From the IMG/VR virus record IMGVR_UViG_2721755498_000006, positions 1-52,298 of that record: 52,298 nt of DNA, one strand, 5' to 3'. The notes below the pieces were generated by a model. The model did no database searches and was not told the origin of the DNA. It worked only from the letters and a program-made list of their open reading frames with translations. This document shows, piece by piece, positions 9,810 to 50,930 of the stretch. The translations under genes were made by a program, and so were the position numbers. How positions within the stretch are numbered: the stretch's first letter is position 1; each line of letters opens with the position of its first letter. The stretch comes from a virus. Taxonomy: Duplodnaviria; Heunggongvirae; Uroviricota; Caudoviricetes.

Positions 9810-10760
9810 TTACAACCAGTTCTTCCGCTTAAAGTACAGATACGGTGCCAGGCCCGCGAGGATCATAAAGATAATCGCGGCAGGGTAGCCGAAGCTCCAC
9901 TTCAGTTCTGGCATAAACTCAAAGTTCATGCCATAGCTGGAAGCAACGAGCGTCGGCGGCAGGAATACCACGGATACCACCGAGAAGATTTTGATGATGC
10001 GGTTCTGCTCGATGTTGATAAAACCCATTGCCGCCTGCATCAGGAAGTTCACCTTCTGGAACAGGGATTCGTTATGCGGCAGCAGGGATTCGATATCTCG
10101 CAGGATTTCACGCGCCTGCTCCAGTTGCCCACCCGGTAAACGCGCTTTACGCACCAGGAAGTTGAGCGCGCGCTGGGTATCCATCAGACACAGGCGAACT
10201 TTCCAGCCGATATCTTCCAGTTCCGCCAGAGTGGAGAGCGCCTCGTCGTACTCATCGCCCTGATGCCCTTCCATAATCACCCGGCTCAACTGCTCCAGGT
10301 CGCTATAGATATTTTCAATTTCATCTGCCAACTGTTCGATTTTGGTTTCGAACAGATCCAGCAGCAACTCGTAGGCGTTACCGTCTACCATCGACTGGCT
10401 ACGGGCACGCATACGATACAGACGAAAAGCGGGCAGTTCACGCTCACGCAGAGTAAACAGACGACCATCACGGATGGTAAATGCCACAGTGGAGTTACCG
10501 GCGTGATCTTCCGCATCTTCAAAGAAGAAGAAGGAGTGAATATGCAGGCCGTCGTCGTCTTCAAAGAAACGTGCCGATGCTTCGATGTCTTCCAGTTCCG
10601 GGCGGGTTGCCAGGCTCTGGCCAAGTTCAGATTGTAAGCGCAGTCGCTCGTCGTCGTCCGGTTCGACAAGATCAATCCATACTGCATTTACAAGGGGTTG
10701 TGACTCTTCGACTTCCAGCCGGGTCAGTCGGTTATTTTCCAGTTGAAATGCGCTCAGCAT
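9810..10760 (-). CDS. corA: magnesium/cobalt transporter CorA
   Basis: [34 protein letters not shown] ... [11 protein letters not shown] ... matches E. coli CorA as I recall it; GMN motif present. Confidence 0.95.
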
Positions 10761-11129
10761 GACCGGGACTCCCAATGCTTAAAATATCGGACAGTTCGGT
10801 GGGCACACAGAAACAAATTGGGTTTCAGACCATTAAACAGCCTGACTCAGCGCGACGGGAAAAATTGAGGTCGCTGACAACCGCTAAGGCTATCAGCAAA
10901 AAGGGATAGCCTTAGGAGTTGATCCTGGATGACAGGATAGTGAGCCAGTATCTACTGGGTGTGTCCAAGGCGAATGTCCTCTTAGAGTGATCGTGCGCGC
11001 ATGTTACGCCAGCAAAATTTTGCCGTCAACACGCAACAGAACACCACAGAACAATAGTTGAACTTCGCGCTTTTTGGTACTCGTCAAGGTCGCTAACAGG
11101 ATAAAAAAATCCCACATCCAGGACCTATA

Positions 11130-11471: not shown

Positions 11472-11747
11472 GTGGCTTCTGTTTCTATCAGCTGTCCCTC
11501 CTGTTCAGCTACTGACGGGGTGGTGCGTAACGGCAAAAGCACCGCCGGACATCAGCGCTATCTCTGCTCTCACTGCCGTAAAACATGGCAACTGCAGTTC
11601 ACTTACACCGCTTCTCAACCCGGTACGCACCAGAAAATCATTGATATGGCCATGAATGGCGTTGGATGCCGGGCAACAGCCCGCATTATGGGCGTTGGCC
11701 TCAACACGATTTTACGTCACTTAAAAAACTCAGGCCGCAGTCGGTAA
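11472..11747 (+). CDS. insA: IS1 InsA
   Basis: identical translation to 9403..9678. Confidence 0.95.
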
Positions 11748-12169
11748 CCTCGCGCATACAGCCGGGCAGTGACGTCATCGTCTGCGCGGAAATGGACGAA
11801 CAGTGGGGATACGTCGGGGCTAAATCGCGCCAGCGCTGGCTGTTTTACGCGTATGACAGGCTCCGGAAGACGGTTGTTGCGCACGTATTCGGTGAACGCA
11901 CTATGGCGACGCTGGGGCGTCTTATGAGCCTGCTGTCACCCTTTGACGTGGTGATATGGATGACGGATGGCTGGCCGCTGTATGAATCCCGCCTGAAGGG
12001 AAAGCTGCACGTAATCAGCAAGCGATATACGCAGCGAATTGAGCGGCATAACCTGAATCTGAGGCAGCACCTGGCACGGCTGGGACGGAAGTCGCTGTCG
12101 TTCTCAAAATCGGTGGAGCTGCATGACAAAGTCATCGGGCATTATCTGAACATAAAACACTATCAATAA
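11666..12169 (+). CDS. insB: IS1 InsB
   Basis: identical translation to 8981..9484. Confidence 0.95.
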
Positions 12170-12302
12170 GTTGGAGTCATTACCCTCATTCCAAAAAGAA
12201 ACCTGCCACAATTTTGCCACACTCACAACGCGCAAAAATGCACATTTGTGTTAAGAAAAGCAAAACAACGCAACAGTAACCAGATGATTTTATTAGAAAA
12301 AA

Positions 12303-12348
12303 TGGTGCCGATAATAGGAGTCGAACCTACGACCTTCGCATTACGAAT
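12303..12348 (-). repeat. att copy: 46-nt direct repeat of the thrW 3' end
   Basis: tggtgccgataataggagtcgaacctacgaccttcgcattacgaat identical to 50855-50900; preceded at ~12200-12222 by TGCCACAATTTTGCCACA arm-type repeat. Confidence 0.9.
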
Positions 12349-12436
12349 CTGTAGCACCAATCATAACTATCTGTTTTAGCAAGCATTAACCGCATTCACC
12401 AAGCAATAGTTGATGGCACAAACAGAAAGTTGATGC

Positions 12437-12964: not shown

Positions 12965-14752
12965 ATGGAACTGAAATATAGACCCGAAATTGATGGGTTG
13001 AGAACATTAGCTGTTTTACCTGTTATCTTTTTTCATGCAGGCGTTCAATGGATTCCTGGAGGTTTTCTTGGAGTAGATGTTTTTTTTGTTATTAGTGGTT
13101 TTTTGATTACCAGCATTTTGCTAAAAGAATGCAGCAATGGAACATTTACATTCTCTGGATTTTATGAGAGAAGGGTTCGCAGAATTGCACCAGCATTAAT
13201 TTTAATGACATCAGTAACATTCATTATATCATTATTTGTGATGGTCCCATATGACCTAAAAAATCTTGGTCAATCAGTAGTTGCAACTATTTTTTCAGCA
13301 AACAATATATTGTTGTACCTAACATCAGGATACTGGTCTACAGCATCTGAATTTAAACCATTATATCACACATGGAGTCTGGCTGTAGAAGAACAGTATT
13401 ATCTTGTGGCACCTATAATAATATATATTATTTATTCAATTAATCATAATAAATTAATAAAAAATAGTTTTATATTCATGCTGTTAGTATCAATTGCCAG
13501 TTTTTTATTTGCAGCAATTGAGACAACACATAATAGAGAGTTTTCATTCCTCATGCTACCCTCTAGAGCCTGGGAGATCGCACTCGGCGGGATTGCTGCT
13601 ATTGCTCATTCGAAAATAAAAAGAAAAAGCAATGCATTATCATTCATTGGTTTTTTGTTAATAATATTTAGTTATTTTCTTGTTAGAGGAAAAATATCAC
13701 ACCCAGGACTCGAAACATTGATGCCAGTGATTGGCACATGTTTATTTTTGATGCATGCCAACTCACATAAAGGCGTAGGAAAGATAATGTCAATAAAACC
13801 AATGGTATTATGTGGTATGATAAGTTACTCATTATACCTTTGGCATCAGCCAGTTTTTGCATTTATAAGACTAAACTCTCAGTTCGAGCCATCAACAATA
13901 TATTTTATTGTTTCTATACCTTTTATTTTTATTATATCTTTTGCATCATATTTCTTTGTTGAGAAACCATTTAGAAACAAGAAAAAAACTTCTACAAAAA
14001 AGATTGTATCATACGCAATAGCATCGTCGTTAGTGTTATCAATATCTGGTTGGTTGATGCACAAGACATATGGATTGCAGAATATCAGGCCAGAGCTTGC
14101 CTATGGCGGCAATCCTCAGGAGTATGTGGACAGCCCTAAACGATTAAAGAATATTGACTTTTCAGATAATGGAAAGAAAATATTAATCATGGGTAATTCA
14201 TATGCGCGAGATATCATTAATGTAATATCTACTAAATTAAACCTTGATGATCTTAATATTGTTTATTTTGAAGGAAATTGCTACGAATCAATAAATAACT
14301 CTCACAAATTAGATTATTACTTGAAAGACGCAAACATTATTATTTACTCTGACAACTGGGGTGGGGAGGAGTATAATAACAGCGTAGAGAAATTAAAATA
14401 CTGCTACGATAACGTAAAGTTAGCATCCAACGCTAAGGTATACATGGTAGGGACAAAAAACTTTGGGTATAACAATAACTTTGCCACTAACTTATCTAAA
14501 AATGATCGAATCTTAGCGAAAACATACCCACTATCAAAGTATTTACAGTTCAATAATGATGCAAAATTAGAGTTAGGAAATGATTATATAGATGTATTTA
14601 GTCTTATTCAAGATGAGAATGGGATGGTTAATGTTTTTGATGGTGATGGTAAGTTTTTATCATATGATACCAATCACTTAACTAAATATGGGGCAAGTTA
14701 CTTAGGTGATATTTTATCAAAAAAAACAGATTTGTTTCATAGTTTAAAATAA
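12965..14752 (+). CDS. O-antigen acyltransferase (acyltransferase-3 membrane domain plus C-terminal SGNH-like domain; OafA/Oac type), lysogenic conversion gene
   Basis: 595-aa AT-rich ORF; N-terminus ...LRTLAVLPVIFFHAGVQ...GVDVFFVISGFLIT..., multiple TM segments, long C-terminal soluble domain; located between tailspike and att as P22 gtr / Sf6 oac. Confidence 0.8.
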   Translation: MELKYRPEIDGLRTLAVLPVIFFHAGVQWIPGGFLGVDVFFVISGFLITSILLKECSNGTFTFSGFYERRVRRIAPALILMTSVTFIISLFVMVPYDLKNLGQSVVATIFSANNILLYLTSGYWSTASEFKPLYHTWSLAVEEQYYLVAPIIIYIIYSINHNKLIKNSFIFMLLVSIASFLFAAIETTHNREFSFLMLPSRAWEIALGGIAAIAHSKIKRKSNALSFIGFLLIIFSYFLVRGKISHPGLETLMPVIGTCLFLMHANSHKGVGKIMSIKPMVLCGMISYSLYLWHQPVFAFIRLNSQFEPSTIYFIVSIPFIFIISFASYFFVEKPFRNKKKTSTKKIVSYAIASSLVLSISGWLMHKTYGLQNIRPELAYGGNPQEYVDSPKRLKNIDFSDNGKKILIMGNSYARDIINVISTKLNLDDLNIVYFEGNCYESINNSHKLDYYLKDANIIIYSDNWGGEEYNNSVEKLKYCYDNVKLASNAKVYMVGTKNFGYNNNFATNLSKNDRILAKTYPLSKYLQFNNDAKLELGNDYIDVFSLIQDENGMVNVFDGDGKFLSYDTNHLTKYGASYLGDILSKKTDLFHSLK

Positions 14753-14800: not shown

Positions 14801-16693
14801 CTAAGCCACCTCACCCCTCCATGAGCAATCAACAATACCTCCGCGCACCATCTTCCACCGCATGTTGTACGATGCCGAAGGAACAAGCTTTATACCAACA
14901 CCAAGATTGGGAACTGTTTCAACTGATTTAATCCAAGCGTTATTTGAATTACTGTACGTGAATGTTAATTGCTCTGTATTAGTGTAGAAGTCATCAGTGC
15001 ATGTTGTTATTGCCGCTGAAGTATTTGCGTTATCCGCCCCGTTATAATAATACAGCTCAAAGGCTATGTAGCCGTGGTTCTTCATCCTCGTAGCAAACAC
15101 GCCGCCCGTGTTTCTTGCCGCGATACCACCCTGTTTGAATGTGGTGTTACGCTCACCTTGCACGCTTCCCGCATTGATAGTCTGGAACGGAGTAACATCA
15201 GCAGAACTGTACTTGTCATTGTACAACTGCATAGCCCCGCCCATTTTATCTGTGTAAAACACATAAGATTCAAGGTGGTAAGGGGATTGGTTTTTAATGG
15301 TATTATACGATTTTATCTCGTTATAGAAATCGGTGTCATTTGTAATATCCTTAAAGGAACTTATGATTAGGTTACTTTCCCACGCAAAGGCTACATAGCT
15401 TCCATCACCCATACCAAAAAACTCCTTAGCAAAATTTATTTGCTTTGTTTTATCAGAGAAGCTTGTTGGTTCAGTGAACATTCCGAGACAAGGCACTATC
15501 TTTGAATTTGGGGATTTATATTGCATTTCAGCCCAGCACAGTACAGCGGTCCTCTTGTTTTCGGCAGAATCCCTAGAAGAGTATGCATATGCATCCACAA
15601 AAATCAAATCGTACCCAACACCGTTATACCCAGAAGGGACTGTTTGGTTATCAAACGAAAAAATCCCGTTGTCAGCTATACATAAAGCTTTACTGGTAAA
15701 TGCCTTGAATGCATTTATACGAGTGGCTTGAGCAGTTGCAGATACCGAATGGTTTTGCGGTTCATCAAACAAGTAATAGCCGATAACGCAATCTCTGCCG
15801 TCAAGGTCTGTAGCCGGGGTGTTTGTCTGCCCGTACACAGTACCACCAAGTATAAGTTTCAATCCAACAGCTTCCGCGGCGTTACAAGCTTTTTCCATAT
15901 TCCCGCCGTTTGTCCACGCTTGACCGTAGTGGATTAGTGTATTAAACCCCGCGGTTTTTAGTTGTAACATGTCACAAATATCAAACACGCGATGAACGTA
16001 TACAGCCTTCATTAGTGAATGGTCTACAGGTATTTCACTATCAAGTTCACATGGAACGTTTGGTAGTCTTGTGTATGTAATCGTTGCTTTTCCGGTAATC
16101 CTTGCACCTTGTGGCCAGTCAAAACTAGATAATGTCGTGGCACCGCTGATATGCGCAACCCCTGTTTTACCTATGGCTGCAAGAACATAAGGCTTAGCGT
16201 CCTCTCCACTACCATATATATATCCATACAAAGAAATATCAGACCAATTATAGCTAGAATTATACTTTATTGAGTCTATTTCTTCTTGTACTGTTTTACC
16301 AGTTGCGGTCCCTACAAGAGATGCCCCGTTATCTGAAGAGATAGTCTGCCTAAACTGATCCGGGTCATACTTAAGCACATTAGGAAAATAGAACTGCTGC
16401 GCCCCATACGCATCATAAACAGCCATAGAATGGCCTTGCACAGTTACGAACTTGGCAATCTGTCCGTTATATACCGGATATCCAGCGGCGTTAATGATGA
16501 TTGGTTGCGGAACAGGAACGTGAGAACCGTCTTCATTCTCTACATAAATCTGAATCTGGTTTTCAGGATTTACCGGGTCAGTGTCAATTTTTCCGATATA
16601 AATTTTGCCATTGGCTACGGCTTTAAAAGAACGCGCCATAGTGAAGAGTTGCGAAGGCATGCTTACCACAATATTTGCGGTGATATCTGACAT
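14801..16693 (-). CDS. tailspike protein: P22 gp9-like N-terminal head-binding domain fused to a different receptor-binding/enzymatic domain
   Basis: [59 protein letters not shown]... matches P22 tailspike N-terminus; remainder unlike P22 endorhamnosidase as I recall it; start set at internal Met with GGAG SD. Confidence 0.9.
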
Positions 16694-16814
16694 TTCATTG
16701 CTCCAGACGAATGATATGATGCAACCATGATGTGATTGCATACCGAAATGGTACTATTGAGTATTTATCCAGTAGGTTACGATGCCATTCCACCCAACTG
16801 GTGAGGCATCAAGG

Positions 16815-33063: not shown

Positions 33064-33139
33064 TGGTGCTGGTTAACGGACTTGAACCGCTACCCATTCG
33101 CTTACAAGGCGACTGCTCTACCATTGGAGCTAAACCAGC
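33064..33139 (-). tRNA. tRNA-Thr (anticodon UGU) in the Q-S interval
   Basis: hand-folded cloverleaf: 7-bp acceptor GCUGGUU/AACCAGC, D-stem GCUC/GAGC, T-loop UUCAAGU, anticodon loop CUUGUAA, 3' CCA encoded. Confidence 0.75.
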
Positions 33140-33144
33140 ATATT

Positions 33145-33219
33145 TGGCGGGACAGCGTGGACTCGAACCACGATAAGAAGGTTAACAGCCTTCCGTAATG
33201 ACCTTTATACGACTGACCC
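33145..33219 (-). tRNA. tRNA-Asn (anticodon GUU)-like, slightly imperfect acceptor and D stems
   Basis: anticodon stem GAAGG/CCUUC, loop CUGUUAA, T-arm CGUGG-UUCGAGU-CCACG, CCA encoded; one U-U mismatch in acceptor stem. Confidence 0.55.
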
Positions 33220-37259: not shown

Positions 37260-38711
37260 TCAGAATCCTCCTTTCTTCTTGGACTGCGGTTCCTCGCGTT
37301 CACGTCGGCGCATTTCAGCAGACTGTTGGTCTGTGTCATAAATAGCGCCATTTGCCTGAATGCAATACACCGTGCCGGTATTGCCATGACGATTGAGACG
37401 AAGGATTAGTTCGGTTTCACCAGGTGGAACACTGTCATCAAAAGCGCCTTCACGATGGATCCCAACCCAATAATCGCAATCCTGTTCAATCTGCCCTGTA
37501 TCTCGTGAGTCACTTGGTAATGGGCGTTTATTGGTTCGGCTTTCCAGTGCGCGGTTAAGCTGCGTCAGAAGCACAACAACGCAATCAAGCTCTTTGGCAA
37601 GGTTCTTCAGTCCTTTGGTGATCATGCCGTAAGCAAGGTCGTTGCGATCGGCCTTCTCAGCGGTCATTAGTGTCAGGTAATCGACCAGAATCATGCCAAC
37701 ACATCCTTTTTCTCGCTTGATTCGACGGCTTTCGCTGACGATTTGAGCCAGAGATAATCCCGGCGTGTCGTCGATGTAAAGCATGTCGATTTCACTCAAG
37801 CGATTAGCTGTTTCGATCGCCCTGTTGAAGTCACCATCGTAATCACCCTGATAGCCGTCATCAGCGTCATTTGTCGCCGGAAGGTAAAAAATATTCGGGT
37901 TAACACCTGACTTCTGTCCTACCAGCTTTTCCAGTATCTGGTCACCTGGCATTTCAAGGCTGAACATCAGAGCGGGCTTTTTCTCATGCACTGCGCAGTT
38001 GATTGCCATCTGGCTGTATAGCGTCGTTTTCCCCATCTTAGGGCGAGCGCCAATGACGAACAGAGAGCCTTTCACCAGACCTTTCGGTGAAAGCATCCTG
38101 TCCAGAGATGGGATCCCTGTGCTCATTCCTCGTTGTTCGCCTGACGGGTCAAATCGCTTCTCAAGGTCGCTAACCCAGTCTTCCATGACCTCACCAAATG
38201 AGCGAAGGCCGCGACGCGATCCGGTTTTTGCATGGTCTGTCAGTTGCGTGAAAATCGACTGAATAGCTTCGTACTTCTGTGTTGCAGTCATTCCGTTGCG
38301 GGAATAGAGCAATTCCGTCGCTTCAGTCATGCGGTTGATGGCGTAGCGTTCCATTGCGGTTTCACGAACCTGCATTGCATAGGCAACGATGTTTGCTGCG
38401 CTTGGCGTGTTCTTTGCGATCTCAGCGATATAAGCAAAACCGCCAACAGACGCCGTTAACGATTTACGCTCCAGCTCATCGAAAAGCGTCAGGCCATCTA
38501 CTGGCTTTTGCTCCCGGTGCATTCTGGTTATTTCTTCGAAAAGGATTTTGTGTGGCCGGCTGTAAAATGAGTCAGGCTTCAGCATCGCCAGAACTTTCTG
38601 GACGCGCTCACTGCTGTCATCATCCAGAAGCAATCCACCAATCACCGCCTGCTCTGCCTCGATGCTATGGGGCGGCGCATAAAAATTATCGGTCATCGTG
38701 TTCACCCTCAC
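37260..38711 (-). CDS. DnaB-family replicative helicase (P22 gene 12 / lambda P position)
   Basis: 483 aa; Walker A GARPKMGKTT; DnaB C-terminal domain motifs. Confidence 0.9.
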   Translation of the reverse strand: MRVNTMTDNFYAPPHSIEAEQAVIGGLLLDDDSSERVQKVLAMLKPDSFYSRPHKILFEEITRMHREQKPVDGLTLFDELERKSLTASVGGFAYIAEIAKNTPSAANIVAYAMQVRETAMERYAINRMTEATELLYSRNGMTATQKYEAIQSIFTQLTDHAKTGSRRGLRSFGEVMEDWVSDLEKRFDPSGEQRGMSTGIPSLDRMLSPKGLVKGSLFVIGARPKMGKTTLYSQMAINCAVHEKKPALMFSLEMPGDQILEKLVGQKSGVNPNIFYLPATNDADDGYQGDYDGDFNRAIETANRLSEIDMLYIDDTPGLSLAQIVSESRRIKREKGCVGMILVDYLTLMTAEKADRNDLAYGMITKGLKNLAKELDCVVVLLTQLNRALESRTNKRPLPSDSRDTGQIEQDCDYWVGIHREGAFDDSVPPGETELILRLNRHGNTGTVYCIQANGAIYDTDQQSAEMRRREREEPQSKKKGGF

Positions 38712-39576
38712 GAACTTTCAGGTAGGTATTGTCGTTAAGCAGGAAATCAAATCCCTTTTTGTGCCAGACGGTTCCGCGTTGATGGTTTGGACGCTCTTCG
38801 AACATCCATCGGCAATTTTCGCCTACGTAGCTCAAATAATTTCTCCAGTCCTGCATCGTGAACCCATGCCCGTCAAGCTGGCGGGTTATCACTCCGGCTT
38901 TGCGCCAGAACGTTCGGATCTGGTTTTTACGCTTGTCATTCAGTGCGCGGATTCTTGGCGCTTCAGGAAGGATTTCGTGGTAAGCATCGACAACATCCTG
39001 ACAGCTGACGGAAGGTTTTTTCTTGTCAGACTTTTTGTCTGCTGCGGTACTCTCTAATACGTCAGTATTAGAGATATTATTTATATTATTGTTTATGGAC
39101 AACCGTTGGACAACCGTTGGACAATCTCCGCTGAGAGCCGCGCCATTACTGGTGTTTGCGTTGGACAACCGTTGGACAACAGTTGGACAATTTTTTGCCT
39201 GAAAATCGTCATATTTAACGATTGTAAACAGGCTAAATTTCTTCCCCATCGCGCAAATATTAAGCATCCCTTTCGACTCAAAAGTCCGTAATAAGCTCCG
39301 AACTTTGTTGTCGGGGATGAATGTTTCTCTGACCAGCGACGGGCGTCCAGTTATCATCTGACCGCGATCAACAGTTATCGGACCGATATCCGTATTGACG
39401 ACAGTAGATTCGTGATTAGCCTTGAGGATTAAGTGAAGCCAAAGATGTACTGCCTGAGAGTCCTTATAGAGCCTGCTGTCCATAAACTGGCGGTGTATAG
39501 AGACATACCCCATACTGGATGCCTCCTGATGTTGTACAGGGTTATGCCTGTAATCAGCTAACTTAACGACGCCCAT
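38686..39576 (-). CDS. replication initiator (lambda O / P22 gene 18-like) containing the origin iterons
   Basis: 296 aa; internal repeated peptide CPTVVQRLSNANTSNG...CPTVVQRLS encoded by iterons; overlaps helicase gene. Confidence 0.85.
   Translation of the reverse strand: MGVVKLADYRHNPVQHQEASSMGYVSIHRQFMDSRLYKDSQAVHLWLHLILKANHESTVVNTDIGPITVDRGQMITGRPSLVRETFIPDNKVRSLLRTFESKGMLNICAMGKKFSLFTIVKYDDFQAKNCPTVVQRLSNANTSNGAALSGDCPTVVQRLSINNNINNISNTDVLESTAADKKSDKKKPSVSCQDVVDAYHEILPEAPRIRALNDKRKNQIRTFWRKAGVITRQLDGHGFTMQDWRNYLSYVGENCRWMFEERPNHQRGTVWHKKGFDFLLNDNTYLKVREGEHDDR
39097..39193. repeat. replication origin iterons: five copies of ~11-bp TTGGACAAC(C/A)G in two clusters, flanked by an AT-rich tract (39066-39095)
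   Basis: directly visible inside the initiator gene. Confidence 0.8.
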
Positions 39577-43499: not shown

Positions 43500-44468
43500 A
43501 TGAGTGAAGTAACAGATTTAGTTGTTATTGAAAAAGCAAATGCAATGACTGTATTTCAGTCTGCCGACCAGATTGAAGAAATCCTTCAAAAGGTTGAACG
43601 TGAAGTTATGTCCTTTGTGCCTGATATCACAACGGCAAAGGGCAGAAAGGAGATCGCTTCTCTGGCGTATAAAGTTGCGCAGACGAAAACATATCTCGAT
43701 GGTCTTGGCAAAGACCTTGTTGCTGAACTTAAGGAAATTCCAAAGCTAATTGATGCCAACCGCAAGACAGTGCGTGATCGCCTTGATGAACTGAAAGCCA
43801 AGGCGCGCCAGCCTCTTACTGATTATGAGGAGGAGCAGGCGCGGATTAAAGCCGAAGAAGAAGCTAAGGCAGCAGCTGAAGCTCTCGCAAAGCAAATTGA
43901 GTCTGACCATGAAATAGCGATTTTGATGGATCGCGAATTTGACCGCCAAAGAGAAGAGGCAAGACTCAAAGCGGAGCAGGAAAAGCGAGAGCATGAAGAA
44001 CGCTTAAAAAGAGAAGCTGAAGAGAAAGCCAGATCTGAAGCCGAAGCAAAGGCAAAAGCCGAAATTGAAGCAGCAGCAAGGCGAGAAGCAGAAGCTAAGG
44101 CCGCAGCGGAACGTGCAGAGCGTGAACGCATTGAAGCCGAGCAACGAGCACAGCGCGAAGCAAAAGAGGCAGCAGAACGAGCTGAAAGAGAAAAGCAGGC
44201 GGCAATTGAAGCAGAACGCCGAAAAGCACAGGAGGAGGCTGAACGAATCCGGCGCGAAGCTGAAGCAAAAGAGCAAGCCAGAATAGCAGAAGAAAAAAGA
44301 ATCAAGGACGAAGAAGAGCGTAGAGCAAAGGATAAAGCTCACCGGAAAGAAGTAAATAACAAAATACTTGCTGACCTTATCAAGGTTGGTGCATCAGAAG
44401 ATGTTGCTAAAAATATCATAACACCCATCGTAAAAGGCGAAGTATTCGCAACAAAAATAACCTACTAA
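43500..44468 (+). CDS. protein with ~100-aa N-terminal domain and long E/R/K/A-rich charged helical region
   Basis: 322-aa ORF; ~200 residues of EAKAKAEIEAAARREAEAKAAAERAERERIEAEQRAQREAKE... low complexity. Confidence 0.55.
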   Translation: MSEVTDLVVIEKANAMTVFQSADQIEEILQKVEREVMSFVPDITTAKGRKEIASLAYKVAQTKTYLDGLGKDLVAELKEIPKLIDANRKTVRDRLDELKAKARQPLTDYEEEQARIKAEEEAKAAAEALAKQIESDHEIAILMDREFDRQREEARLKAEQEKREHEERLKREAEEKARSEAEAKAKAEIEAAARREAEAKAAAERAERERIEAEQRAQREAKEAAERAEREKQAAIEAERRKAQEEAERIRREAEAKEQARIAEEKRIKDEEERRAKDKAHRKEVNNKILADLIKVGASEDVAKNIITPIVKGEVFATKITY

Positions 44469-45017: not shown

Positions 45018-45623
45018 ATGAGCAAAGAATTTTACGCAAGACTGGCAGCCATTCAGGAGAATCTGAACGCGCCAAAAAATCAGTACAACTCATTCGGTAA
45101 ATATAAATACAGAAGCTGCGAAGATATTCTTGAAGGCGTTAAGCCGTTACTGAATGGCCTGTTTTTATCAATCAGCGATGAAGTTGTGTTGATTGGTGAT
45201 CGGTATTACGTGAAAGCCACGGCAACTATTACCGATGGCGAAAACAGTCATACGGCAACCGCTCTCGCAAGAGAGGAAGAAAGCAAGAAAGGAATGGATT
45301 CTGCACAAGTTACTGGAGCTACAAGCTCTTATGCGCGCAAGTATTGCCTTAATGGTTTGTTCGGCATTGATGATGCGAAAGATGCAGATACAGACGAGCA
45401 TAAACATCAGCAGAACGCAGCAGCAAAGCAATCAAAGCCATCACCTACACCTGAACAGGTTCTAAAAGCATTCACTGACGCAGCATTGCAGAAAAACACC
45501 GTGGAAGAGCTTAAACAGGCGTTCGCCAAAGCGTGGAAGATGCTCGAAGGCACACCGGAGCAGCACAAAGCGCAGGACGTTTACAACATCAGACGAGACG
45601 AATTAGAAGGGGCAACTGCTTAA
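45018..45623 (+). CDS. erf: Erf single-strand annealing recombinase
   Basis: MSKEFYARLAAIQENLNAPKNQYNSFGKYKYRSCEDILEGVKPLLNGLFLSISDE... as P22 Erf. Confidence 0.9.
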   Translation: MSKEFYARLAAIQENLNAPKNQYNSFGKYKYRSCEDILEGVKPLLNGLFLSISDEVVLIGDRYYVKATATITDGENSHTATALAREEESKKGMDSAQVTGATSSYARKYCLNGLFGIDDAKDADTDEHKHQQNAAAKQSKPSPTPEQVLKAFTDAALQKNTVEELKQAFAKAWKMLEGTPEQHKAQDVYNIRRDELEGATA

Positions 45624-46006
45624 TGGCACATTCGATTACAGTAAGACTAAACAAGCCCGCAAGAGAGTTTCAGGCCGGGGAAAATATCGGATTCAACATC
45701 CGTGCTGGCGTTCAGTATTACGATCGCCAGACAAAAAAGAAAGAATGGACAAACTACAGCGCCGTTGTATTTGCCAAGCCGGGAGCGCAAGCGGATTACT
45801 ACCGTAGTGTTCTTGTTGAAGGTGGCATTGTGGAAATTACCGGAGAAAACATCAGGGTAGATGTTTATCAGGGGCAAAATGGTCAATCAATCACTCTTGA
45901 ATTACTGAATGCAAAGATTGGATTTGCAACTTCAGGAAACAGCCAACAGCAGCAAAGTAGCAATCATCAAAATCATCCTGAATACGACGATTCAATCCCC
46001 TTCTAG
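45623..46006 (+). CDS. SSB-like single-stranded DNA-binding protein
   Basis: OB-fold-like N-terminus, Gln-rich linker and acidic tail DDSIPF like SSB DDDIPF. Confidence 0.75.
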   Translation: MAHSITVRLNKPAREFQAGENIGFNIRAGVQYYDRQTKKKEWTNYSAVVFAKPGAQADYYRSVLVEGGIVEITGENIRVDVYQGQNGQSITLELLNAKIGFATSGNSQQQQSSNHQNHPEYDDSIPF

Positions 46007-46029
46007 ATTAGCAAAATAAGGATTCCATT

Positions 46030-46323
46030 ATGCCAGCGCCTCTGTATGGTGCGGATGACCCGCGCCGCTGTTCCGGCAATTCCGTATCGGAGGTGCTGGA
46101 TAAATTCAGAAAAAACTACGATCGGATAATGTCGCTACCGCAGGAAACGAAAGAGGAAAAGGAATTTCGCCATTGTATATGGCTTGCAGAGAAAGAAGAA
46201 CGCGAGCGAATTTACCAGACATCAATCCGACCATTCCGCAAAGCCACATATACCCACTTCCCTGAAATTGACCCGCGCCTGCGTAATTACCGCTCACGCT
46301 ATGGCGCTATCAGTAATGACTGA
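46030..46323 (+). CDS. abc2: Abc2-like anti-RecBCD protein
   Basis: 97 aa; recalled similarity to P22 Abc2 and position after erf. Confidence 0.6.
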
Positions 46324-46333
46324 GGAATTTACC

Positions 46334-46510
46334 ATGAGAGGACTTGCATACAATCCCGGCATTCTTCCGGCAGAAATGATTATTCGCCAGCGCGTAAAGC
46401 CAATGCCATCGAGAGAGGAATTGCTTAAGAGAAATAGTTTCGGTTCTGTTAACGACAACAGATATCTTGAAATGATTTTGAGGAGTAAGAAGGATTATGT
46501 CAAAAAATGA
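46334..46510 (+). CDS. small hypothetical ORF
   Basis: 58 aa. Confidence 0.3.
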
Positions 46511-47075
46511 CATTTCATATGAATACCTCATTAGCAACATTCACTACGATAAAGAAACTGGGGTTTTCAAGAAGATAATTAAATCAAATAATGGGGATAT
46601 AATTGGTTTCAAACCAACTGGCTGTACGCACTCGATGGGATACATAAGGATATATATTAATAAAAAATGGTATTTAGCGCACAGACTAGCTTGGTTATAT
46701 GTTACCGGGAAATGGCCAGTAAATGTAATTGATCACATCAACAGAAATAAAGCTGACAACAGGTTTATTAACCTACGAGATGTCTCCAGTAGGGAAAACA
46801 ATAGCAACACAAGTAGAAATAAAGGAACTGAAATAGGCACAGAAAGGTGTGCTTATGGATGGAGAGCATACATAGGTGTTAATGGAAAACTACATCACCT
46901 TGGCTCATATGCAACATGTGATGGTGCAAAATATGCGTATGCTCTAGCAAAATATCAAGTAGAAATATATGGTTACCTGCGCCCCACACCAATCGATTGC
47001 AGAAAATTAAATTACGGAAACAGGGGGAATCGTAATGGAAATCCTAAATCAAACCGTCGCAAGTTCCTTCAGTGA
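46497..47075 (+). CDS. HNH homing-type endonuclease
   Basis: HNH motif region [32 protein letters not shown]. Confidence 0.8.
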
Positions 47076-47883
47076 ATCAAAACAAATATCTGAATGCGAT
47101 GTGGCGGAGTGGGAAGAAATGAAACAAATGTCACTAATTGAGATGGATGGATTTCTGAAAGGTAAATGCATCCCATGTGATTTAAAGGTTAACGAAACAA
47201 ATGCTGAATATCTTGTCCGTAAGTTCGGTGAACTTGAATCAAAACTAGAAACGGCGTTGCGTGAGTGTCGTTCTGCTGGAATCACGATTGATAACCTTGA
47301 GGCCAAGTGCGCGGCGCTGGCTGACTTATTTGGCGATGTGAAAGAGATTTTTGGTTTTAAGTATCGCTATTTCATCACCTCAAAGGGGCTCATTTTCTCA
47401 TTGGCCTCTGGCGAACTAAAGCAATTAAACCCAACCATGCGCGGCAAGAACAGAAATCAGTATTTATTCGTTAGGCTGGAGTTTGAAGGAAAACTAAAAG
47501 GCGTGAACATCCACCGATTAGTTGCTGAAAACTTTCTCGGCCCTAAGCCTTCTGATGAGCACGTAATTAACCATATAGACGGGAATAAACAAAACAATGA
47601 TGTTTCAAACCTGGAGTGGACGACGGTAGCGGGCAACACTCAGCACGCATATAGAACAGGTCTGGCCGGGGGAAGAAAACACGGATCGTATAAAGGTCCA
47701 GTCTGCGCTGAGAACGAGGAAGGTTTTGGGTATGTGTTCTTTGACAGCAAACAGGCCATCGAGGCTGGATTTAACCCAAACTCAATCAGGGACGCTGTTG
47801 TTAAGCCATGGAAGAAAGTATTCGGATTCTATTTTAGTCGCATCAATACCGATGCCCAGCTTCGCAAAGGGGGCAACCAGTGA
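47035..47883 (+). CDS. HNH endonuclease (NUMOD4-like N-terminal region)
   Basis: HRLVAENFLGPKPSDEHVINHIDGNKQNNDVSNLEW. Confidence 0.8.
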   Translation: MEILNQTVASSFSESKQISECDVAEWEEMKQMSLIEMDGFLKGKCIPCDLKVNETNAEYLVRKFGELESKLETALRECRSAGITIDNLEAKCAALADLFGDVKEIFGFKYRYFITSKGLIFSLASGELKQLNPTMRGKNRNQYLFVRLEFEGKLKGVNIHRLVAENFLGPKPSDEHVINHIDGNKQNNDVSNLEWTTVAGNTQHAYRTGLAGGRKHGSYKGPVCAENEEGFGYVFFDSKQAIEAGFNPNSIRDAVVKPWKKVFGFYFSRINTDAQLRKGGNQ

Positions 47884-48452
47884 GCAATATTGACTATCAG
47901 GCACTGCGTGAAAAGGCAGAGAAAGCAACGAGTGGTGTGTGGTCGCTCGAATATGGAGAGGAGAGATTTGATGCTGGTGATGCGCTAATTCATCGTGAAG
48001 TTGTTGGATATCTTCCCATTTGCAGAATTGAAGGAGCGCATCCTGAAAGCGGTTTCGATGAAGATTTCCAAATGGAACAGCAGGCCAATGCTGAATTCAT
48101 CGCCGCAGCCAATCCGGCTACCGTCTTGGCGCTGCTGGATGAGCTGGAAACAGCAAAAAAGCGCATAGCAGAACTGAAAGCCGAACCTGTAAGCCAAACT
48201 TACAAGTTGAACCAGCTATCGGGCAACTCTCCGGTAACTCCGGATGGTTGGATAAGCTGTAGTGAGCGAATGCCAGATGATGGTCAGCACGTAATTATTT
48301 TATGTGATGGCGCATTCGTTCTTTATGCGCAATATCGAGACGGTGAGTTTTTTGATGTCGTCCGTGATGGTGATGAATTTTTCGAAACGCAGAGCCGCAA
48401 TGTAACCGACTGGATGCCGCTACCAGAACCGCCTCGATTAAAGGAGCTATAA
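47880..48452 (+). CDS. Ea22/DUF551-like early protein
   Basis: C-terminal DGWISCSERMPDDGQHVII...WMPLPEPP pattern recalled for DUF551. Confidence 0.55.
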   Translation: MSNIDYQALREKAEKATSGVWSLEYGEERFDAGDALIHREVVGYLPICRIEGAHPESGFDEDFQMEQQANAEFIAAANPATVLALLDELETAKKRIAELKAEPVSQTYKLNQLSGNSPVTPDGWISCSERMPDDGQHVIILCDGAFVLYAQYRDGEFFDVVRDGDEFFETQSRNVTDWMPLPEPPRLKEL

Positions 48453-48566
48453 TAGTGAACTATTATATCTATTTGTATTAAAAGAGTTTTTATAAAATAA
48501 ATCTTCCAAAGCATGTAAAAACACTGTTAATCTTAACGTGTGTGAAACGTGAAGAGAGGTGTTGAA

Positions 48567-48848
48567 ATGAGCATTCATGATTTGTGTGAAGATCAAGAGC
48601 AATGGGCTATGCAGACCCTTATGGGATCAGGAGTTCTTGCAAGGTGCAGAATCCATAACGATGTAATTTTAGACAGCGGAAATGATGCTTCTTCTGCTTA
48701 TAAATTAGGAACTTACTTATATCAAAAAGATAATAGCTGCAACTTATTCAATACTCTTACTGAAGCCCGCGACGTAATAAAGGATGCATATGAATCGTAT
48801 TGTGGGATTGATGATTGCCCACAATGCTCAAAATACATTGACGATTAA
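48567..48848 (+). CDS. Cys-rich small protein, AT-rich moron
   Basis: start MSIHDLCEDQ with GAGAGG SD; C...C ... CGIDDCPQC cysteines; AT-rich upstream tract with TATAAAAT. Confidence 0.45.
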   Translation: MSIHDLCEDQEQWAMQTLMGSGVLARCRIHNDVILDSGNDASSAYKLGTYLYQKDNSCNLFNTLTEARDVIKDAYESYCGIDDCPQCSKYIDD

Positions 48849-49455: not shown

Positions 49456-49803
49456 GTGGAAGAAGAAATCTTCACTCGTGAAGAGGCAGCATCGTATCTG
49501 AAGGTAGACAAAGGCACTATCACGCAGTGGATACGAAGTGGACGACTTCAGGCCGCAAAGATAAATCCAGATAAACCTAAAAGCCCATATCGTATTTGCA
49601 AGTCAGACTGCATTGCGGCGCTTAAGTCTGTGAGACACAATAGCGCGGTGAATGCGGTTGATGTGCAGGAGGTTAAAGCATGTCAATCAAACTACGCGGT
49701 GGCACGTGGCACTGCGATTTCGTCGCGCCAGATGGATCAAGAGTTAGACGCTCTCTTGAAACATCGGACAAAAGGCAAGCGCAAGAACTTCACGATCGTC
49801 TGA
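49456..49803 (+). CDS. xis: excisionase (P22 Xis-like, HTH)
   Basis: 115 aa; MEEEIFTREEAASYLKVDKGTITQWIRSGRL HTH; overlaps int start by ~124 nt. Confidence 0.7.
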   Translation: MEEEIFTREEAASYLKVDKGTITQWIRSGRLQAAKINPDKPKSPYRICKSDCIAALKSVRHNSAVNAVDVQEVKACQSNYAVARGTAISSRQMDQELDALLKHRTKGKRKNFTIV

Positions 49804-50840
49804 AAGCAGAAGCGTGGAGAGTAAAAAATCTCGGGGAATCACCGAAAAAGCTATTCAAGGAAGCCTGCATACGGTGGCTTCGTGAGAAATCGGATAAGAA
49901 GTCCATTGATGATGACAAGAGCATTATATCGTTCTGGATGTTGCACTTCAGAGAAACCATTCTCTCAGACATAACAACAGAAAAAATAATGGAGGCGGTA
50001 GACGGGATGGAAAACCGCCGCCATCGCCTGAACTGGGAAATGAGCCGGGACAGGTGTTTGCGGCTTGGCAAGCCAGTGCCGGAGTATAAACCAAAGCTGG
50101 CAAGCAAAGGAACGAAGACGCGGCATCTGGCAATACTTCGCGCTATTCTCAATATGGCTGTTGAATGGGGATGGCTTGACAGGGCGCCCAAAATATCAAC
50201 ACCACGCGTTAAGAATGGACGAATCAGATGGCTTACAGAGGAGGAATCGAAGCGCCTGTTTGCAGAAATTGCTCCTCATTTCTTCCCTGTGGTCATGTTT
50301 GCAATCACGACAGGCCTTCGCCGTTCCAACGTTACAGACCTTGAGTGGTCACAGGTCGATCTGGATAAGAAAATGGCATGGATGCACCCTGATGAAACAA
50401 AAGCTGGCAATGCGATCGGAGTTCCTCTTAACGAAACCGCATGCCAGATATTAAGAAAACAGCAGGGGCTCCATAAGAGATGGGTATTTGTCCACACCAA
50501 ACCTGCCTACCGAAGCGACGGAACAAAAACAGCAGCGGTAAGGAAGATGAGAACCGACAGCAACAAGGCATGGAAGGGAGCGTTAAAGCGGGCAGGCATT
50601 AGCAACTTCCGCTTCCATGACCTGAGGCATACCTGGGCAAGCTGGCTGGTTCAGTCCGGTGTCTCTCTTCTTGCGCTTAAAGAGATGGGAGGATGGGAAA
50701 CTCTCGAAATGGTTCAAAGATACGCCCACCTTTCAGCCGGGCATCTCACCGAGCACGCGAGCAAAATCGATGCGATTATAAGTCGCAATGGCACAAATAC
50801 GGCACAAGAGGAGAACGTAGTTTACTTAAATGCGAGGTAA
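49680..50840 (+). CDS. int: tyrosine integrase (P22 Int-like), thrW-specific
   Basis: 386 aa; N-terminus like P22 Int; R..HxxR..Y (RRSNV, HDLRHTWAS, QRYAH); stop 14 nt from tRNA 3' end. Confidence 0.95.
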   Translation: MSIKLRGGTWHCDFVAPDGSRVRRSLETSDKRQAQELHDRLKAEAWRVKNLGESPKKLFKEACIRWLREKSDKKSIDDDKSIISFWMLHFRETILSDITTEKIMEAVDGMENRRHRLNWEMSRDRCLRLGKPVPEYKPKLASKGTKTRHLAILRAILNMAVEWGWLDRAPKISTPRVKNGRIRWLTEEESKRLFAEIAPHFFPVVMFAITTGLRRSNVTDLEWSQVDLDKKMAWMHPDETKAGNAIGVPLNETACQILRKQQGLHKRWVFVHTKPAYRSDGTKTAAVRKMRTDSNKAWKGALKRAGISNFRFHDLRHTWASWLVQSGVSLLALKEMGGWETLEMVQRYAHLSAGHLTEHASKIDAIISRNGTNTAQEENVVYLNAR

Positions 50841-50854
50841 CTTATTGATTTAAA

Positions 50855-50930
50855 TGGTGCCGATAATAGGAGTCGAACCTACGACCTTCGCATTACGAAT
50901 GCGCTGCTCTACCAACTGAGCTATATCGGC
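50855..50930 (-). tRNA. thrW: tRNA-Thr (anticodon CGU), intact; attR-side att site
   Basis: GCCGATATAGCTCAGTTGGTAGAGCAGCGCATTCGTAATGCGAAGGTCGTAGGTTCGACTCCTATTATCGGCACCA on minus strand. Confidence 0.95.

Follow-up and report, generated by a model that had tools for sequence, protein, structure and literature searches.

Two HNH endonuclease cassettes embedded in neighbouring early-left genes of a P22-like Escherichia coli prophage

Some homing endonuclease genes of mitochondria, for example that of Allomyces atp6, bring a replacement gene end with them and displace the resident one. I-HmuI (PDB 1U3E) is an intron-encoded, nicking HNH homing endonuclease from Bacillus phage SPO1. Free-standing homing endonucleases of T-even phages, SegF and MobE among them, are known for 'intronless homing' (reviewed in PMC2988022; PMC2790892), organellar intron ORFs can be fused in frame to upstream exons (PMC8393795), and an HNH endonuclease is inserted in a methylase gene of the actinophage ShiLan (PMC11855218). 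Gene 31/31A of Salmonella phage epsilon34 has been described as an 'EaE-like protein in-frame fusion with HNH endonuclease' (Villafane et al., 2008; PMC2629481), and the annotators of epsilon34 labelled 31A 'possibly defective'. With HK629 gp36 and epsilon34 gp31/31A, both kinds of nuclease treated here are already annotated, and their side-by-side combination alone is rare. Our literature search found no published analysis of the insertion anatomy of the first of them, HNH-1, and no experimental paper on the HNH-1 and HNH-2 proteins, their close relatives, DUF2737 or EaE.

The window, that is the whole stretch of 52,298 nucleotides analysed here, is derived from a P22-like E. coli prophage integrated at thrW. 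Pfam and PHROG assignments give the gene order erf, ssb-like, abc2, DUF2737, HNH-1, ORF2, Ead/Ea22-DUF551, ea8.5-like, xis and int, in agreement with a first-pass annotation that had placed an HNH pair between abc2 and xis in the early-left operon. All genes and cassettes of this region described below lie on the plus strand. ORF1, the HNH-1 gene, spans 46497-47075 (192 amino acids), and ORF2 in its longest reading, as given by the open reading frame list, spans 47035-47883 (282 amino acids). Their surroundings are the non-essential, dispensable 'ea' part of the operon. Rfam searches at the gathering threshold returned nothing but three tRNAs in the window, and neither ORF carries a Hint/intein domain of Pfam; a group I intron or intein context was therefore rejected. 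In fact, both cassettes are flanked by ordinary DUF2737 and eaE coding sequence. The terminase-associated type of HNH protein represented by HK97 gp74 does not apply either, as both genes reside in the early-left operon between abc2 and xis; a long distance separates them from the large minus-strand ORFs located at 14.8-30.4 kb, among which the tailspike was the sole one identified by domain search. Promoter-like and terminator-like sites in the region did not exceed the numbers in shuffled sequence, and a promoter or terminator belonging to either cassette was rejected on these grounds.

The first-pass annotation had credited both ORFs with clear HNH catalytic motifs and with different N-terminal parts, and the profile searches and alignments bear this out. 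Each protein contains one Pfam HNH_3 domain (PF13392) well above the curated cut-off of 24.8 bits (ORF1, 53.5 bits, E = 1.8e-14; ORF2, 51.6 bits, E = 7.3e-14). Furthermore, both match PHROG HNH families (ORF1, phrog_99, E = 2e-53; ORF2, E = 6.5e-40) and the generic 'homing endonuclease' models of PADLOC, while NCBIfam holds no family for either protein. Residues D74, H75, N87 and N96 of I-HmuI correspond to D79 (46731-46733), H80 (46734-46736), N92 (46770-46772) and N101 (46797-46799) of ORF1 and to N151 (47569-47571), H152 (47572-47574), N164 (47608-47610) and N173 (47635-47637) of ORF2, the latter numbered from ATG 47119. These positions are conserved among homologues: D79, H80 and N92 of HNH-1 are invariant and N101 is nearly so (≥90%) across 47 sequences, and H152, N164 and N173 of HNH-2 are invariant in 16 sequences. 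The match of Asn151 to the metal ligand D74 is inexact, and this Asn is likewise invariant in all 16 members, free-standing ones included. The ratio dN/dS amounts to 0.17 for HNH-1 relative to the Salmonella copy and to 0.13 for HNH-2 relative to epsilon34, over 13% divergence. A comparison of HNH-1 with a 70%-identical relative yielded a dN of 0.23 with saturated dS.

Contrary to the initial description, HNH-1 is not located between genes. Junction alignments place it inside the DUF2737 gene, where 628 bp (46436-47063) are absent from the empty-site allele and 4 bp are present instead. Positions 46001-46435 of the window match 2059-2496 of the HNH-free prophage L004, and positions 47064-47321 match 2501-2758 of the same prophage. 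Together with identity steps at the borders and a GC content of 32-39% as opposed to 46-50% in the flanks, this identifies HNH-1 as a foreign, low-GC cassette inserted at about codon 35 of a 54-codon gene. The resulting DUF2737 gene (46334-46510, 58 amino acids; Pfam DUF2737, E = 5e-29) is chimeric. Codons 1-34 (46334-46435) are the resident allele, with 97% identity of 46333-46435 to HNH-free prophages that breaks off thereafter, whereas codons 35-58 (46436-46510) constitute a diverged replacement 3′ end carried in by the cassette, so that the tail consists of 24 residues here versus 20 different ones in empty sites. HNH-1 supplies a substitute for the last ~20 codons and the DUF2737 gene therefore stays intact. 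The same replacement tail accompanies HNH-1 in Salmonella and in the 70%-identical relative. The start of HNH-1 overlaps this tail by 14 nt and is preceded by a good Shine-Dalgarno sequence (GAGGAG/AAGGA). The displaced native 3′ end of DUF2737, corresponding to 18 residues, is still present at 47064-47122, as evident from alignment of both junctions with the empty site, and its TGA (47120-47122) overlaps the eaE start codon ATG 47119. The proper description of HNH-1 is thus that of an insertion in DUF2737 which brings along a substitute end for this gene.

HNH-1 of the Salmonella type reads in frame through the DUF2737 remnant and comprises 208 amino acids. Such read-through is represented by two homologues of 208 (P0121, with Pfam HNH_3 and DUF2737 domains) and 213 amino acids (P0122). 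In the window, a 1-nt deletion near 47066, apparent as a 1-nt indel relative to the copy L013, ends HNH-1 at 47075. Copies in IMG/VR comprise 192 or 208 amino acids and one is truncated at 93; in the annotation of strain JX2 a 24-residue 'DUF2737 family protein' fragment follows the HNH gene. The ancestral HNH-1 may accordingly be pictured as reading through the displaced native tail up to the ATGA junction with eaE, which would have kept translational coupling, and the 1-nt deletion in the E. coli copies would have moved the end 47 nt upstream.

The HNH-1 protein consists of an N-terminal beta region, the HNH_3 nuclease and, probably, an AP2-type DNA-binding domain. Its AlphaFold2 model (pLDDT 83) matches I-HmuI 1U3E (probability 1.00, E = 1.8e-3), and residues ~115-158 of the model match the AP2 domain of Arabidopsis TEM1 (probability 0.85-0.91, rmsd 1.7-3.7 Å). 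The Pfam AP2 profile (PF00847) did not match ORF1, even when the segment was searched in isolation, and is present in many homologues aligned over the same C-terminal region; the probable AP2 assignment is derived from these homologues and from the predicted fold. A sequence search of ORF1 against the PDB gave nothing significant, I-HmuI and AP2 having surfaced in the fold search alone. Among the GTDB species-representative genomes, no close relative of HNH-1 was found, just alphaproteobacterial ones at 38-41% identity.

The second nuclease resides in eaE. Positions 47119-47321 are 98% identical to the 5′ part of a 151-residue EaE-like gene in HNH-free prophages (phrog_614, E = 1e-36). This segment has its native start codon with GGAG upstream and encodes ~68 helical residues that end in the conserved joint LEAKCAALA; in the AlphaFold2 model of the fusion, residues 6-15, 26-52 and 57-71 form helices. 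The HNH-2 cassette follows at 47322-47857; its borders were defined by comparison with the HNH-free prophages L004 and L003 and by protein alignment. It replaces 227 bp of eaE, with the frame kept at both ends, and sits in the variable middle of the gene between the conserved joints ..KCAALA and ..QLRKGGNQ*. The last stretch (47858-47883) is common to ORF2 and HNH-free eaE alleles, and its ..QLRKGGNQ* end harbours the ribosome-binding site (AAGGGGG) of the downstream gene for an Ead/Ea22 and DUF551 protein (47880-48452; Pfam Ead_Ea22, E = 1e-21; DUF551, E = 4e-20), the GTG start of which overlaps the ORF2 stop codon (GTGA). The ancestral start region of HNH-2 is GTG 47338. Free-standing relatives start at this point with an AAGGGG-type Shine-Dalgarno sequence of their own; none is present in front of GTG 47338 in the window. 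Because HNH-2 lacks its own ribosome-binding site, the product is most likely a 254-residue EaE(N)-HNH fusion beginning at ATG 47119, 44 nt after the ORF1 stop codon. Its model (pLDDT 77 for ORF2) consists, after the EaE part, of a beta DNA-binding region, the HNH domain and, towards the C-terminus, strands with two short helices.

These findings modify two earlier statements. The term 'freestanding' holds only in part: HNH-1 is embedded in DUF2737, and ORF2, by its junctions and protein alignment, is not freestanding but an in-frame eaE::HNH chimera. The overlap of ~40 nt between the two ORFs is real in the longest-ORF reading (41 nt), yet it is probably a start-codon artefact, since this reading extends ORF2 upstream to an ATG whose existence depends on HNH-1. 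The first 28 codons of this reading (47035-47118) cross the 3′ end of HNH-1 and the DUF2737 remnant in another frame, which is limited to the tandem arrangement; identical 282-residue proteins occur on just four contigs, while the 254-residue form is common. The appropriate annotation of ORF2 is therefore an eaE::HNH fusion with its start at 47119, and not a freestanding gene overlapping ORF1.

Comparison of the same interval in related prophages, as suggested by the first-pass annotation, revealed clear presence/absence polymorphism. Among 5,426 complete E. coli genomes, HNH-1 is found in 16, HNH-2 in five, both in none and the uninterrupted site in at least 674. Both cassettes are thus rare, occurring in about 1% or less of DUF2737-bearing prophages. 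In other genomes, either cassette is encountered singly with identical borders; alignment with empty sites fixes these borders to within a few bases, and nearly every copy has an intact ORF. At neighbouring positions other prophages contain different HNH genes. The HNH-1 cassette and that of a Salmonella Teko prophage are ~98.6% identical, as opposed to ~79% in the left and ~91% in the right flank; the flanks are lineage-specific on both sides, and the left crossover point varies in that the 5′ end of the Salmonella DUF2737 gene becomes E. coli-type at about codon 22. HNH-1 furthermore occurs together with four different recombination modules, of the Erf, RecT, Sak4-like and Rad52 types. For HNH-2, identity to E. 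coli MSB1_9D is 99.8% within the cassette versus 91% in the eaE flank. Higher identity in cassettes than in flanks and the diversity of backgrounds fit horizontal spread, and ordinary mosaic recombination fits these sequence patterns as well.

The tandem of HNH-1 and HNH-2 is present on four public contigs and is combined with two different integrases. Over positions 46333-47323 the prophage of strain JX2, which of the two cassettes has HNH-1 only, shows 98.5% identity to the window; over positions 47068-47913 the prophage of strain VTB97584v, with HNH-2 only, shows 97.4%. These stretches overlap in the 5′ part of eaE. Judged by this pattern, the tandem seems to stem from recombination between two phages that each had one of the cassettes. 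It probably arose when a phage with HNH-1 and one with HNH-2 underwent ordinary homologous recombination in the ~260-bp eaE 5′ segment common to both, in which the SNP pattern did not locate the crossover.

On the whole, we consider it probable that the locus harbours two independent selfish cassettes of the homing type, embedded in DUF2737 and eaE, respectively, that spread by homing and were brought together by recombination. During lytic growth or co-infection, each enzyme would nick or cut close to the insertion point in related phages or prophages that have the cassette-free allele, and repair by recombination from the cassette-bearing genome would copy the cassette and some flanking sequence across. 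The adjacent erf and abc2 functions would help such repair. The turnover of selfish elements proposed early on for this site gains support as homing-type turnover from the presence/absence pattern, the other HNH genes nearby and the truncated 93-residue copy. On the other hand, identity steps and shared junctions are equally compatible with mosaic recombination at conserved lambdoid gene boundaries, HNH-2 replaces 227 bp instead of being a clean insertion and could therefore be one alternative module of a variable gene, and the rarity of both cassettes counts against an efficiently homing element at a common site. Since the original 3′ end of DUF2737 persists behind HNH-1, it has to be assumed for immunity of the occupied allele that the recognition site spans the insertion point. 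Model phages such as HK97 and at least 674 complete E. coli genomes have the uninterrupted DUF2737-eaE junction, a defined target for asking if homing takes place among temperate coliphages and adds to their mosaicism.

The nucleases might instead be kept because they benefit the phage, by cutting competing related phages or resident prophages in the course of co-infection (marker exclusion, interference competition) or by feeding Erf/Abc2 with breaks. The position of both genes, which come right after erf, ssb and abc2 in their operon, the purifying selection (dN/dS 0.13-0.17), the fact that the HNH-2 family holds the slot after DUF2737 down to 49% identity and the recurrence of several different HNH genes in this region of other prophages all point in this direction. 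A useful function should however be more common than 16 and five occurrences against at least 674 uninterrupted sites, and a decaying HNH-1 copy exists, so we regard this explanation as unlikely. Nor is it a clean alternative, marker exclusion being homing seen from the loser's side. The lambdoid early-left operon is repressed in the lysogen, and a role of the HNH genes in prophage defence is therefore unlikely.

It is rather improbable that one or both genes are inactive relics of former homing endonucleases, carried as passive mosaic filler in a non-essential region. The 'possibly defective' label of epsilon34 31A, the Asn of HNH-2 at the position of the I-HmuI ligand Asp74 together with its missing ribosome-binding site, the loss of the C-terminal read-through from E. 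coli HNH-1 and the truncated copy would all agree with decay. The low dN/dS values for both genes, including HNH-2 over 13% divergence, and the dN of 0.23 at saturated dS for HNH-1 argue against it, as do the nearly always intact ORFs and the conservation of the general-base His and both Asn residues. Catalytic decay of HNH-2 had been considered specifically on account of Asn151 and was rejected on the strength of the alignment and of the dN/dS of 0.13; because this Asn is invariant across the family, free-standing members included, its presence probably does not signify decay. The frameshift in HNH-1 costs just a borrowed 19-residue tail outside the folded domains. Finally, a frameshift within what was one HNH gene, or a recent duplication in tandem, suggested by adjacency on the same strand and by the 41-nt overlap of the longest reading, has next to nothing left to recommend it: the two ORFs are to be seen as separate genes because their identity is just 26%, confined to about 40 residues around the motif (E = 0.078), each has a complete HNH_3 domain and occurs alone at the same junctions elsewhere, their architectures differ (probable AP2 C-terminal domain versus I-HmuI-like C-terminal region), and the DUF2737 remnant and the native eaE start lie between them.

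Beyond the preferred reading of two embedded homing-type cassettes, we entertain with considerable reserve the idea that residence of HNH-2 on a helical EaE N-terminus is functional and not an accident of recombination, and that HNH-1 is similarly 'self-healing', having co-evolved with DUF2737. Most HNH-2 relatives down to 49% identity bear an N-terminal extension joined at the same ..AL(A/E)xLFG.. point; these extensions differ in sequence, and that in the window is predicted to be helical by AlphaFold2. If true, the EaE extension might bring about dimerisation or targeting of an I-HmuI-like nickase, with the result that the enzyme cuts both strands or that its activity is linked to EaE function, and HNH-1 would carry a recoded, cleavage-immune gene end. 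Endonucleases of temperate phages would then have a mode of residence in which a cassette settles within a small gene that is translationally coupled and takes over the start and stop codons already there. As a separate observation, the HNH gene of VTB97584v begins with codons 1-11 of the Ead/Ea22 gene and would be a third example of such residence.

How does the locus compare with the systems introduced at the outset? Gene 31/31A of epsilon34 and gene 26/26A of g341c occupy the same slot as HNH-2 right after DUF2737 in the early-left operon. The epsilon34 fusion is in frame at both ends as well and shares with HNH-2 the joint of ..EKCAALA to DLF.DVKEI.. and the HNH core (87% identity on the amino acid and 88% on the nucleotide level), whereas the EaE N-terminal segment in the window is an E. 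coli allele unrelated in sequence to that of epsilon34. Unlike in epsilon34, a second endonuclease cassette precedes the fusion and creates the extra upstream ATG and with it the 282-residue reading. The 'HNH endonuclease' gp36 (F849_gp36) of Escherichia phage HK629 is the HNH-1 gene, which Salmonella prophages and 16 of the complete E. coli genomes possess as well. HK629 is 98.2% identical to 46334-47323 of the window (DUF2737, HNH-1 and the eaE 5′ part), with the same 192-residue product, junctions and DUF2737 remnant. It is, however, a Lambdavirus with a Sak4-like recombinase and an intact 151-residue eaE-like gene downstream, without HNH-2.

I-HmuI and HNH-2 align from I-HmuI residue 4 through the HNH motif (phmmer, E = 4.8e-8), and the HNH-2 model matches the whole chain of 1U3E (Foldseek, E = 5e-9, probability 1.00, 179 columns). 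H75, N87 and N96 are kept in both window proteins at an identity of just 19-26%. Both models display the I-HmuI-like succession of beta, HNH and C-terminal modules with a high global rmsd (13-16 Å), as expected if the domains are arranged differently. In contrast to I-HmuI, neither gene is intron-encoded, Rfam having found no intron in the window; HNH-2 has Asn at the D74 position and an additional helical EaE N-terminus of ~70 residues, and the C-terminal domain of HNH-1, probably of the AP2 type, stands where I-HmuI has its DNA-binding one.

The pair resembles the intronless homing systems of T-even phages in that ORFs lie in or between conserved phage genes, are polymorphic for presence and absence, show co-conversion of flanks and lack an intron or intein. 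Cleavage and biased inheritance have been demonstrated for the T-even enzymes, whereas the pair in the window is known from sequence and models. Moreover, the T-even genes are intergenic with promoters of their own, while the cassettes described here lie within resident ORFs, on whose translation signals they draw. HNH homing-type genes are common passengers in dispensable lambdoid regions, and the present case is ordinary apart from its neat insertion anatomy. In this respect it comes close to ORF-embedded or fused homing endonuclease genes, with an endonuclease inside a host ORF, no splicing element and use of the expression signals of the host gene. The ShiLan HNH endonuclease is out of frame with its host gene and HNH-2 is in frame, and the hosts in our case are small non-essential lambdoid genes; the ORF-embedded cases are, as far as tested, not homologous in sequence. 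HNH-1 in particular parallels those genes that bring a replacement end, for here, too, a foreign end comes along and the displaced native end is left behind.

The interval 46497-47883 contains two HNH nuclease genes of the I-HmuI type, both intact and maintained by selection, with exact junctions and a polymorphic, patchy distribution. HNH-1 (46497-47075, + strand, 192 aa) and ORF2 (47035-47883, + strand, 282 aa in its longest reading) each encode a single Pfam HNH_3 domain (E values of 1.8e-14 and 7.3e-14, respectively) scoring about twice the curated cut-off, and both strongly match PHROG HNH families. Domain and PHROG searches identified the neighbouring genes as erf (45018-45623), ssb-like (45623-46006), abc2 (46030-46323), DUF2737 (46334-46510), Ead/Ea22 + DUF551 (47880-48452), ea8.5-like (48549-48848), xis (49456-49803) and int (49680-50840), which places both nuclease genes in the early-left operon of a P22-like or lambdoid prophage. 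The prophage adjoins tRNA-Thr(cgt) (50855-50930) and a proA-like gene. The first-pass annotation is thus right on coordinates, strand, domains and genomic context. Also in the early-left operon, upstream of cIII and kil, lies a 322-aa ORF (43500-44468, + strand), for which the precomputed table of the identical locus L008 lists no Pfam family.

A prophage of E. coli FORC_082 that lacks both cassettes (locus L004) served as the empty-site reference for the junctions. Since window positions 46001-46435 correspond to L004 2059-2496 and positions 47064-47321 to L004 2501-2758, the HNH-1 cassette comprises 628 bp (46436-47063), as opposed to 4 bp in the empty allele. The insertion point is at about codon 35 of the 54-codon DUF2737 gene. 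Upstream of the nuclease gene, the cassette provides its own, diverged version of the DUF2737 end (~20 codons), which differs from the native tail in protein sequence and by many synonymous changes; owing to this replacement DUF2737 is still a complete 58-aa ORF that matches its Pfam profile end to end. The HNH-1 ATG is located inside the new tail and is preceded by a good Shine-Dalgarno sequence. Downstream of HNH-1 the native DUF2737 3' end is retained (47064-47122), and its stop codon (TGA) and the start codon of the following gene still share bases (ATGA, 47119-47122); PGAP calls this remnant a 'DUF2737 family protein' of 24 aa in JX2. The nuclease ORF is longer in the Salmonella copies (208 aa) and in a metagenomic relative with 70% identity (213 aa), where it continues in frame through the remnant to the ATGA junction, which indicates that the arrangement is old and originally kept translational coupling to the downstream gene. 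In the E. coli copies, including that of the window, a 1-nt deletion near 47066 leads to the end of the HNH-1 protein at 47075. The cassette is compositionally foreign (GC content of 32-39% versus 46-50%).

In phages with an empty site, DUF2737 is followed by a gene for a 151-aa EaE-like protein, whose ATG corresponds to window position 47119. The 5' part of this gene is 98% identical to window 47119-47321, 227 bp of the middle and 3' part are replaced by the HNH-2 cassette (47322-47857), and the sequence is again common at 47858-47883, which encodes the ..QLRKGGNQ* end and includes the ribosome-binding site of the following gene and its overlapping GTG. The reading frame is kept at both ends of the replacement, and the joint ..KCAALA/DLFGDVKEI.. 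is also present in epsilon34 gene 31. A C-terminal ..QLR(K/A)G.. motif is common to HNH-free EaE proteins, EaE-HNH fusions and free-standing HNH-2 relatives in other phage regions; this segment, which in the homologues likewise overlaps with the next gene's ribosome-binding site and start, may be a conserved sequence at the gene boundary that serves for module exchange.

Presence or absence of the interval in relatives, to which the first-pass annotation had pointed, was assessed in 5,426 complete E. coli genomes. The HNH-1 core occurs in 16 and the HNH-2 core in five of them (all at least 99% identical), none contains more than 80% of the combined interval, and the DUF2737-eaE junction is uninterrupted in at least 674. 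No phage-collection record carries both cassettes; the exact 282-aa ORF2, diagnostic of the tandem of HNH-1 and HNH-2, was found on four contigs from about seven samples, and one of these contigs has a different, lambda-type integrase. HNH-1 is accompanied by Erf, RecT, Sak4-like or Rad52-type recombination modules. It is present on five IMG/VR contigs, on one of them (UViG_643692035_000004, L025 1501-1780) as a copy cut to 93 aa that is apparently decaying next to intact flanking DUF2737. HNH-2 relatives (49-66% identity) occupy the same slot after DUF2737, the nin region and other places, and in most of them an N-terminal extension of some kind is attached at the same motif. Further, different HNH genes are situated just downstream of HNH-2 in VTB97584v (L001 3313-3903) and MSB1_9D (L003 3716-4093). 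The former encodes 196 aa with 37% identity to HNH-1 in an alignment spanning the HNH and putative AP2 regions, and its first 11 codons are those with which the Ead/Ea22 gene starts (MSNID...); it is a third case in which an HNH cassette uses the start codon of a resident gene.

In comparison with a Salmonella Teko prophage, the HNH-1 cassette of the window shows ~9 mismatches in ~630 bp; the flanks show 31 in 150 bp on the left and 9 in 100 bp on the right. These flanks are lineage-specific, that is the DUF2737 5' end and the remnant are of Salmonella type in Salmonella and of E. coli type in E. coli. The left crossover lies at codon ~22 in the Salmonella lineage and at codon ~34 in that of E. 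coli, as would be expected if co-conversion tracts vary in length. The HNH-2 sequences of the window and MSB1_9D share 99.8% identity, as against only 91% in the adjoining eaE 5' segment, which has a 66-bp in-frame deletion. The patterns fit the prediction for homing and are supportive rather than decisive, as ordinary recombination at conserved gene boundaries, the general source of lambdoid mosaicism, would produce them as well. As for the tandem, window 46333-47323 shares 98.5% identity with the JX2 prophage, which carries HNH-1 only, and window 47068-47913 shares 97.4% with the VTB97584v prophage, which carries HNH-2 only, both stretches overlapping in a ~260-bp eaE 5' segment. One homologous crossover in this segment between singly occupied phages would yield exactly this arrangement; the SNP pattern within the segment does not locate the crossover point.

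GTG 47338 is equivalent to the start of I-HmuI and of the free-standing relatives. These relatives have AAGGGG-type sites, but no Shine-Dalgarno sequence precedes GTG 47338, which makes a 254-aa EaE-HNH fusion from ATG 47119 the most likely product of ORF2. The first ~70 residues of this fusion are predicted to be helical in an AlphaFold model. ORF2, in frame with eaE at both ends, is therefore not the freestanding gene it was taken for in the first-pass annotation. The 282-aa reading starts from an ATG within the 3' end of HNH-1 and then passes through the DUF2737 remnant in a different frame, so that it can exist only in the tandem; its production by re-initiation at 47035 is possible. The reported ~40-nt overlap of the two ORFs exists in the longest-ORF reading and is probably an artefact of calling longest ORFs, the likely start being 47119. 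A single frameshifted gene is ruled out by the low similarity of the two proteins (26% identity over only ~40 residues around the motif, E 0.078) and by the occurrence of each gene alone in other genomes, HNH-1 in phage HK629 and E. coli JX2 and HNH-2 in E. coli VTB97584v and MSB1_9D and Salmonella phages epsilon34 and g341c; the original count of two genes stands.

The alignment of HNH-2 with I-HmuI, a homing endonuclease of solved structure (1U3E), begins at I-HmuI residue 4 (E 4.8e-8). I-HmuI residues D74, H75 (the general base), N87 and N96 correspond to N151, H152, N164 and N173 in ORF2 (numbered from ATG 47119) and to D79, H80, N92 and N101 in HNH-1, with the same H-N-N spacing of 12 and 9 residues in both. 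In alignments of 16 and 47 homologues, each of the catalytic positions is either invariant or conserved to at least 90%, bearing out the clear HNH motifs initially seen in both genes. The sole departure is Asn151 of ORF2 in place of the I-HmuI metal ligand Asp74. A decay mutation is improbable here because Asn is invariant throughout the HNH-2 family, including free-standing members of 189-193 aa, and is thus a family trait. The dN/dS values of 0.13 (HNH-2 core versus epsilon34) and 0.17 (HNH-1 versus a Salmonella copy) point to purifying selection on both genes; between HNH-1 and its 70%-identical relative dN is 0.23 and synonymous sites are saturated. AlphaFold models support the fold assignments: in Foldseek searches the ORF2 model (pLDDT 77) matched I-HmuI with a probability of 1.00 (E 5e-9, 179 columns) and the HNH-1 model (pLDDT 83) did so with a probability of 1.00 (E 1.8e-3). 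Residues ~115-158 of the latter match the AP2 domain of Arabidopsis TEM1 (probability up to 0.91, rmsd ~2 Å). Pfam AP2 is present in many HNH-1 homologues, but its profile does not match HNH-1 itself.

Both cassettes would be transcribed within the early-left operon; cassette-specific promoter or terminator signals did not exceed the shuffled-sequence background. Given such transcription, the enzymes would be made only in lytic growth or upon induction. Each may then nick or cut the cassette-free allele of a related genome near its own insertion point, and recombinational repair would copy the cassette into the cut genome. For the occupied HNH-1 allele to be immune, the recognition site would have to extend across the insertion point or fall in the recoded tail, as is assumed here. 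The phage could possibly benefit through exclusion of competitors by the enzymes. The lambdoid early-left operon is repressed in the lysogen, and a role in prophage defence is therefore unlikely.

Elsewhere in the window, the 3' part of tRNA-Thr(cgt) is present in three direct copies (7057-7126, 12282-12351 and 50834-50903; 97% and 79% identity to the reference copy), which suggests that several elements have integrated in tandem at thrW. The first (1 to ~7056) would be an island with a SNF2-family helicase and a YagK/YfjJ-like gene, the second a small island with an integrase (7185-8288), a CorA-like transporter (9810-10775) and IS1 (11666-12169), and the third (~12352-50833) the P22-like prophage. 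Within the prophage, a 296-aa ORF (38686-39576) contains about seven copies of 11-nt repeats (TGGACAACCGT and variants) in two groups (39096-39202), which resemble the iterons of a lambdoid origin of replication located in an O-like gene. The prophage also carries tRNA-Thr(tgt) and tRNA-Asn(gtt) (33064-33219, - strand) and, at its end, an AT3 + SGNH acyltransferase ORF of the O-antigen-modifying type (12965-14752, + strand) adjoining a tailspike gene with a P22-type head-binding domain (14801-16741, - strand). The best phage match of the early-left region is the serotype-converting Shigella phage Sf101.

In the literature searched we found no description of the rare HNH-1/HNH-2 tandem or of the anatomy of the HNH-1 insertion, with a replacement gene end and the displaced native end serving as nuclease tail and coupling signal. 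HNH-1 as such is already annotated as HK629 gp36, and the HNH-2 fusion has been described as gene 31/31A of epsilon34 and 26/26A of g341c. Free-standing or ORF-embedded phage HNH homing-type endonucleases are a well-known class, for which the T-even Seg/Mob enzymes are experimentally proven models (PMC2988022, PMC2790892). HNH insertion into an ORF without intron or intein has been discussed for an actinophage methylase (PMC11855218), and in organelles endonuclease ORFs are fused to upstream host coding sequences and thereby gain expression signals (PMC8393795).
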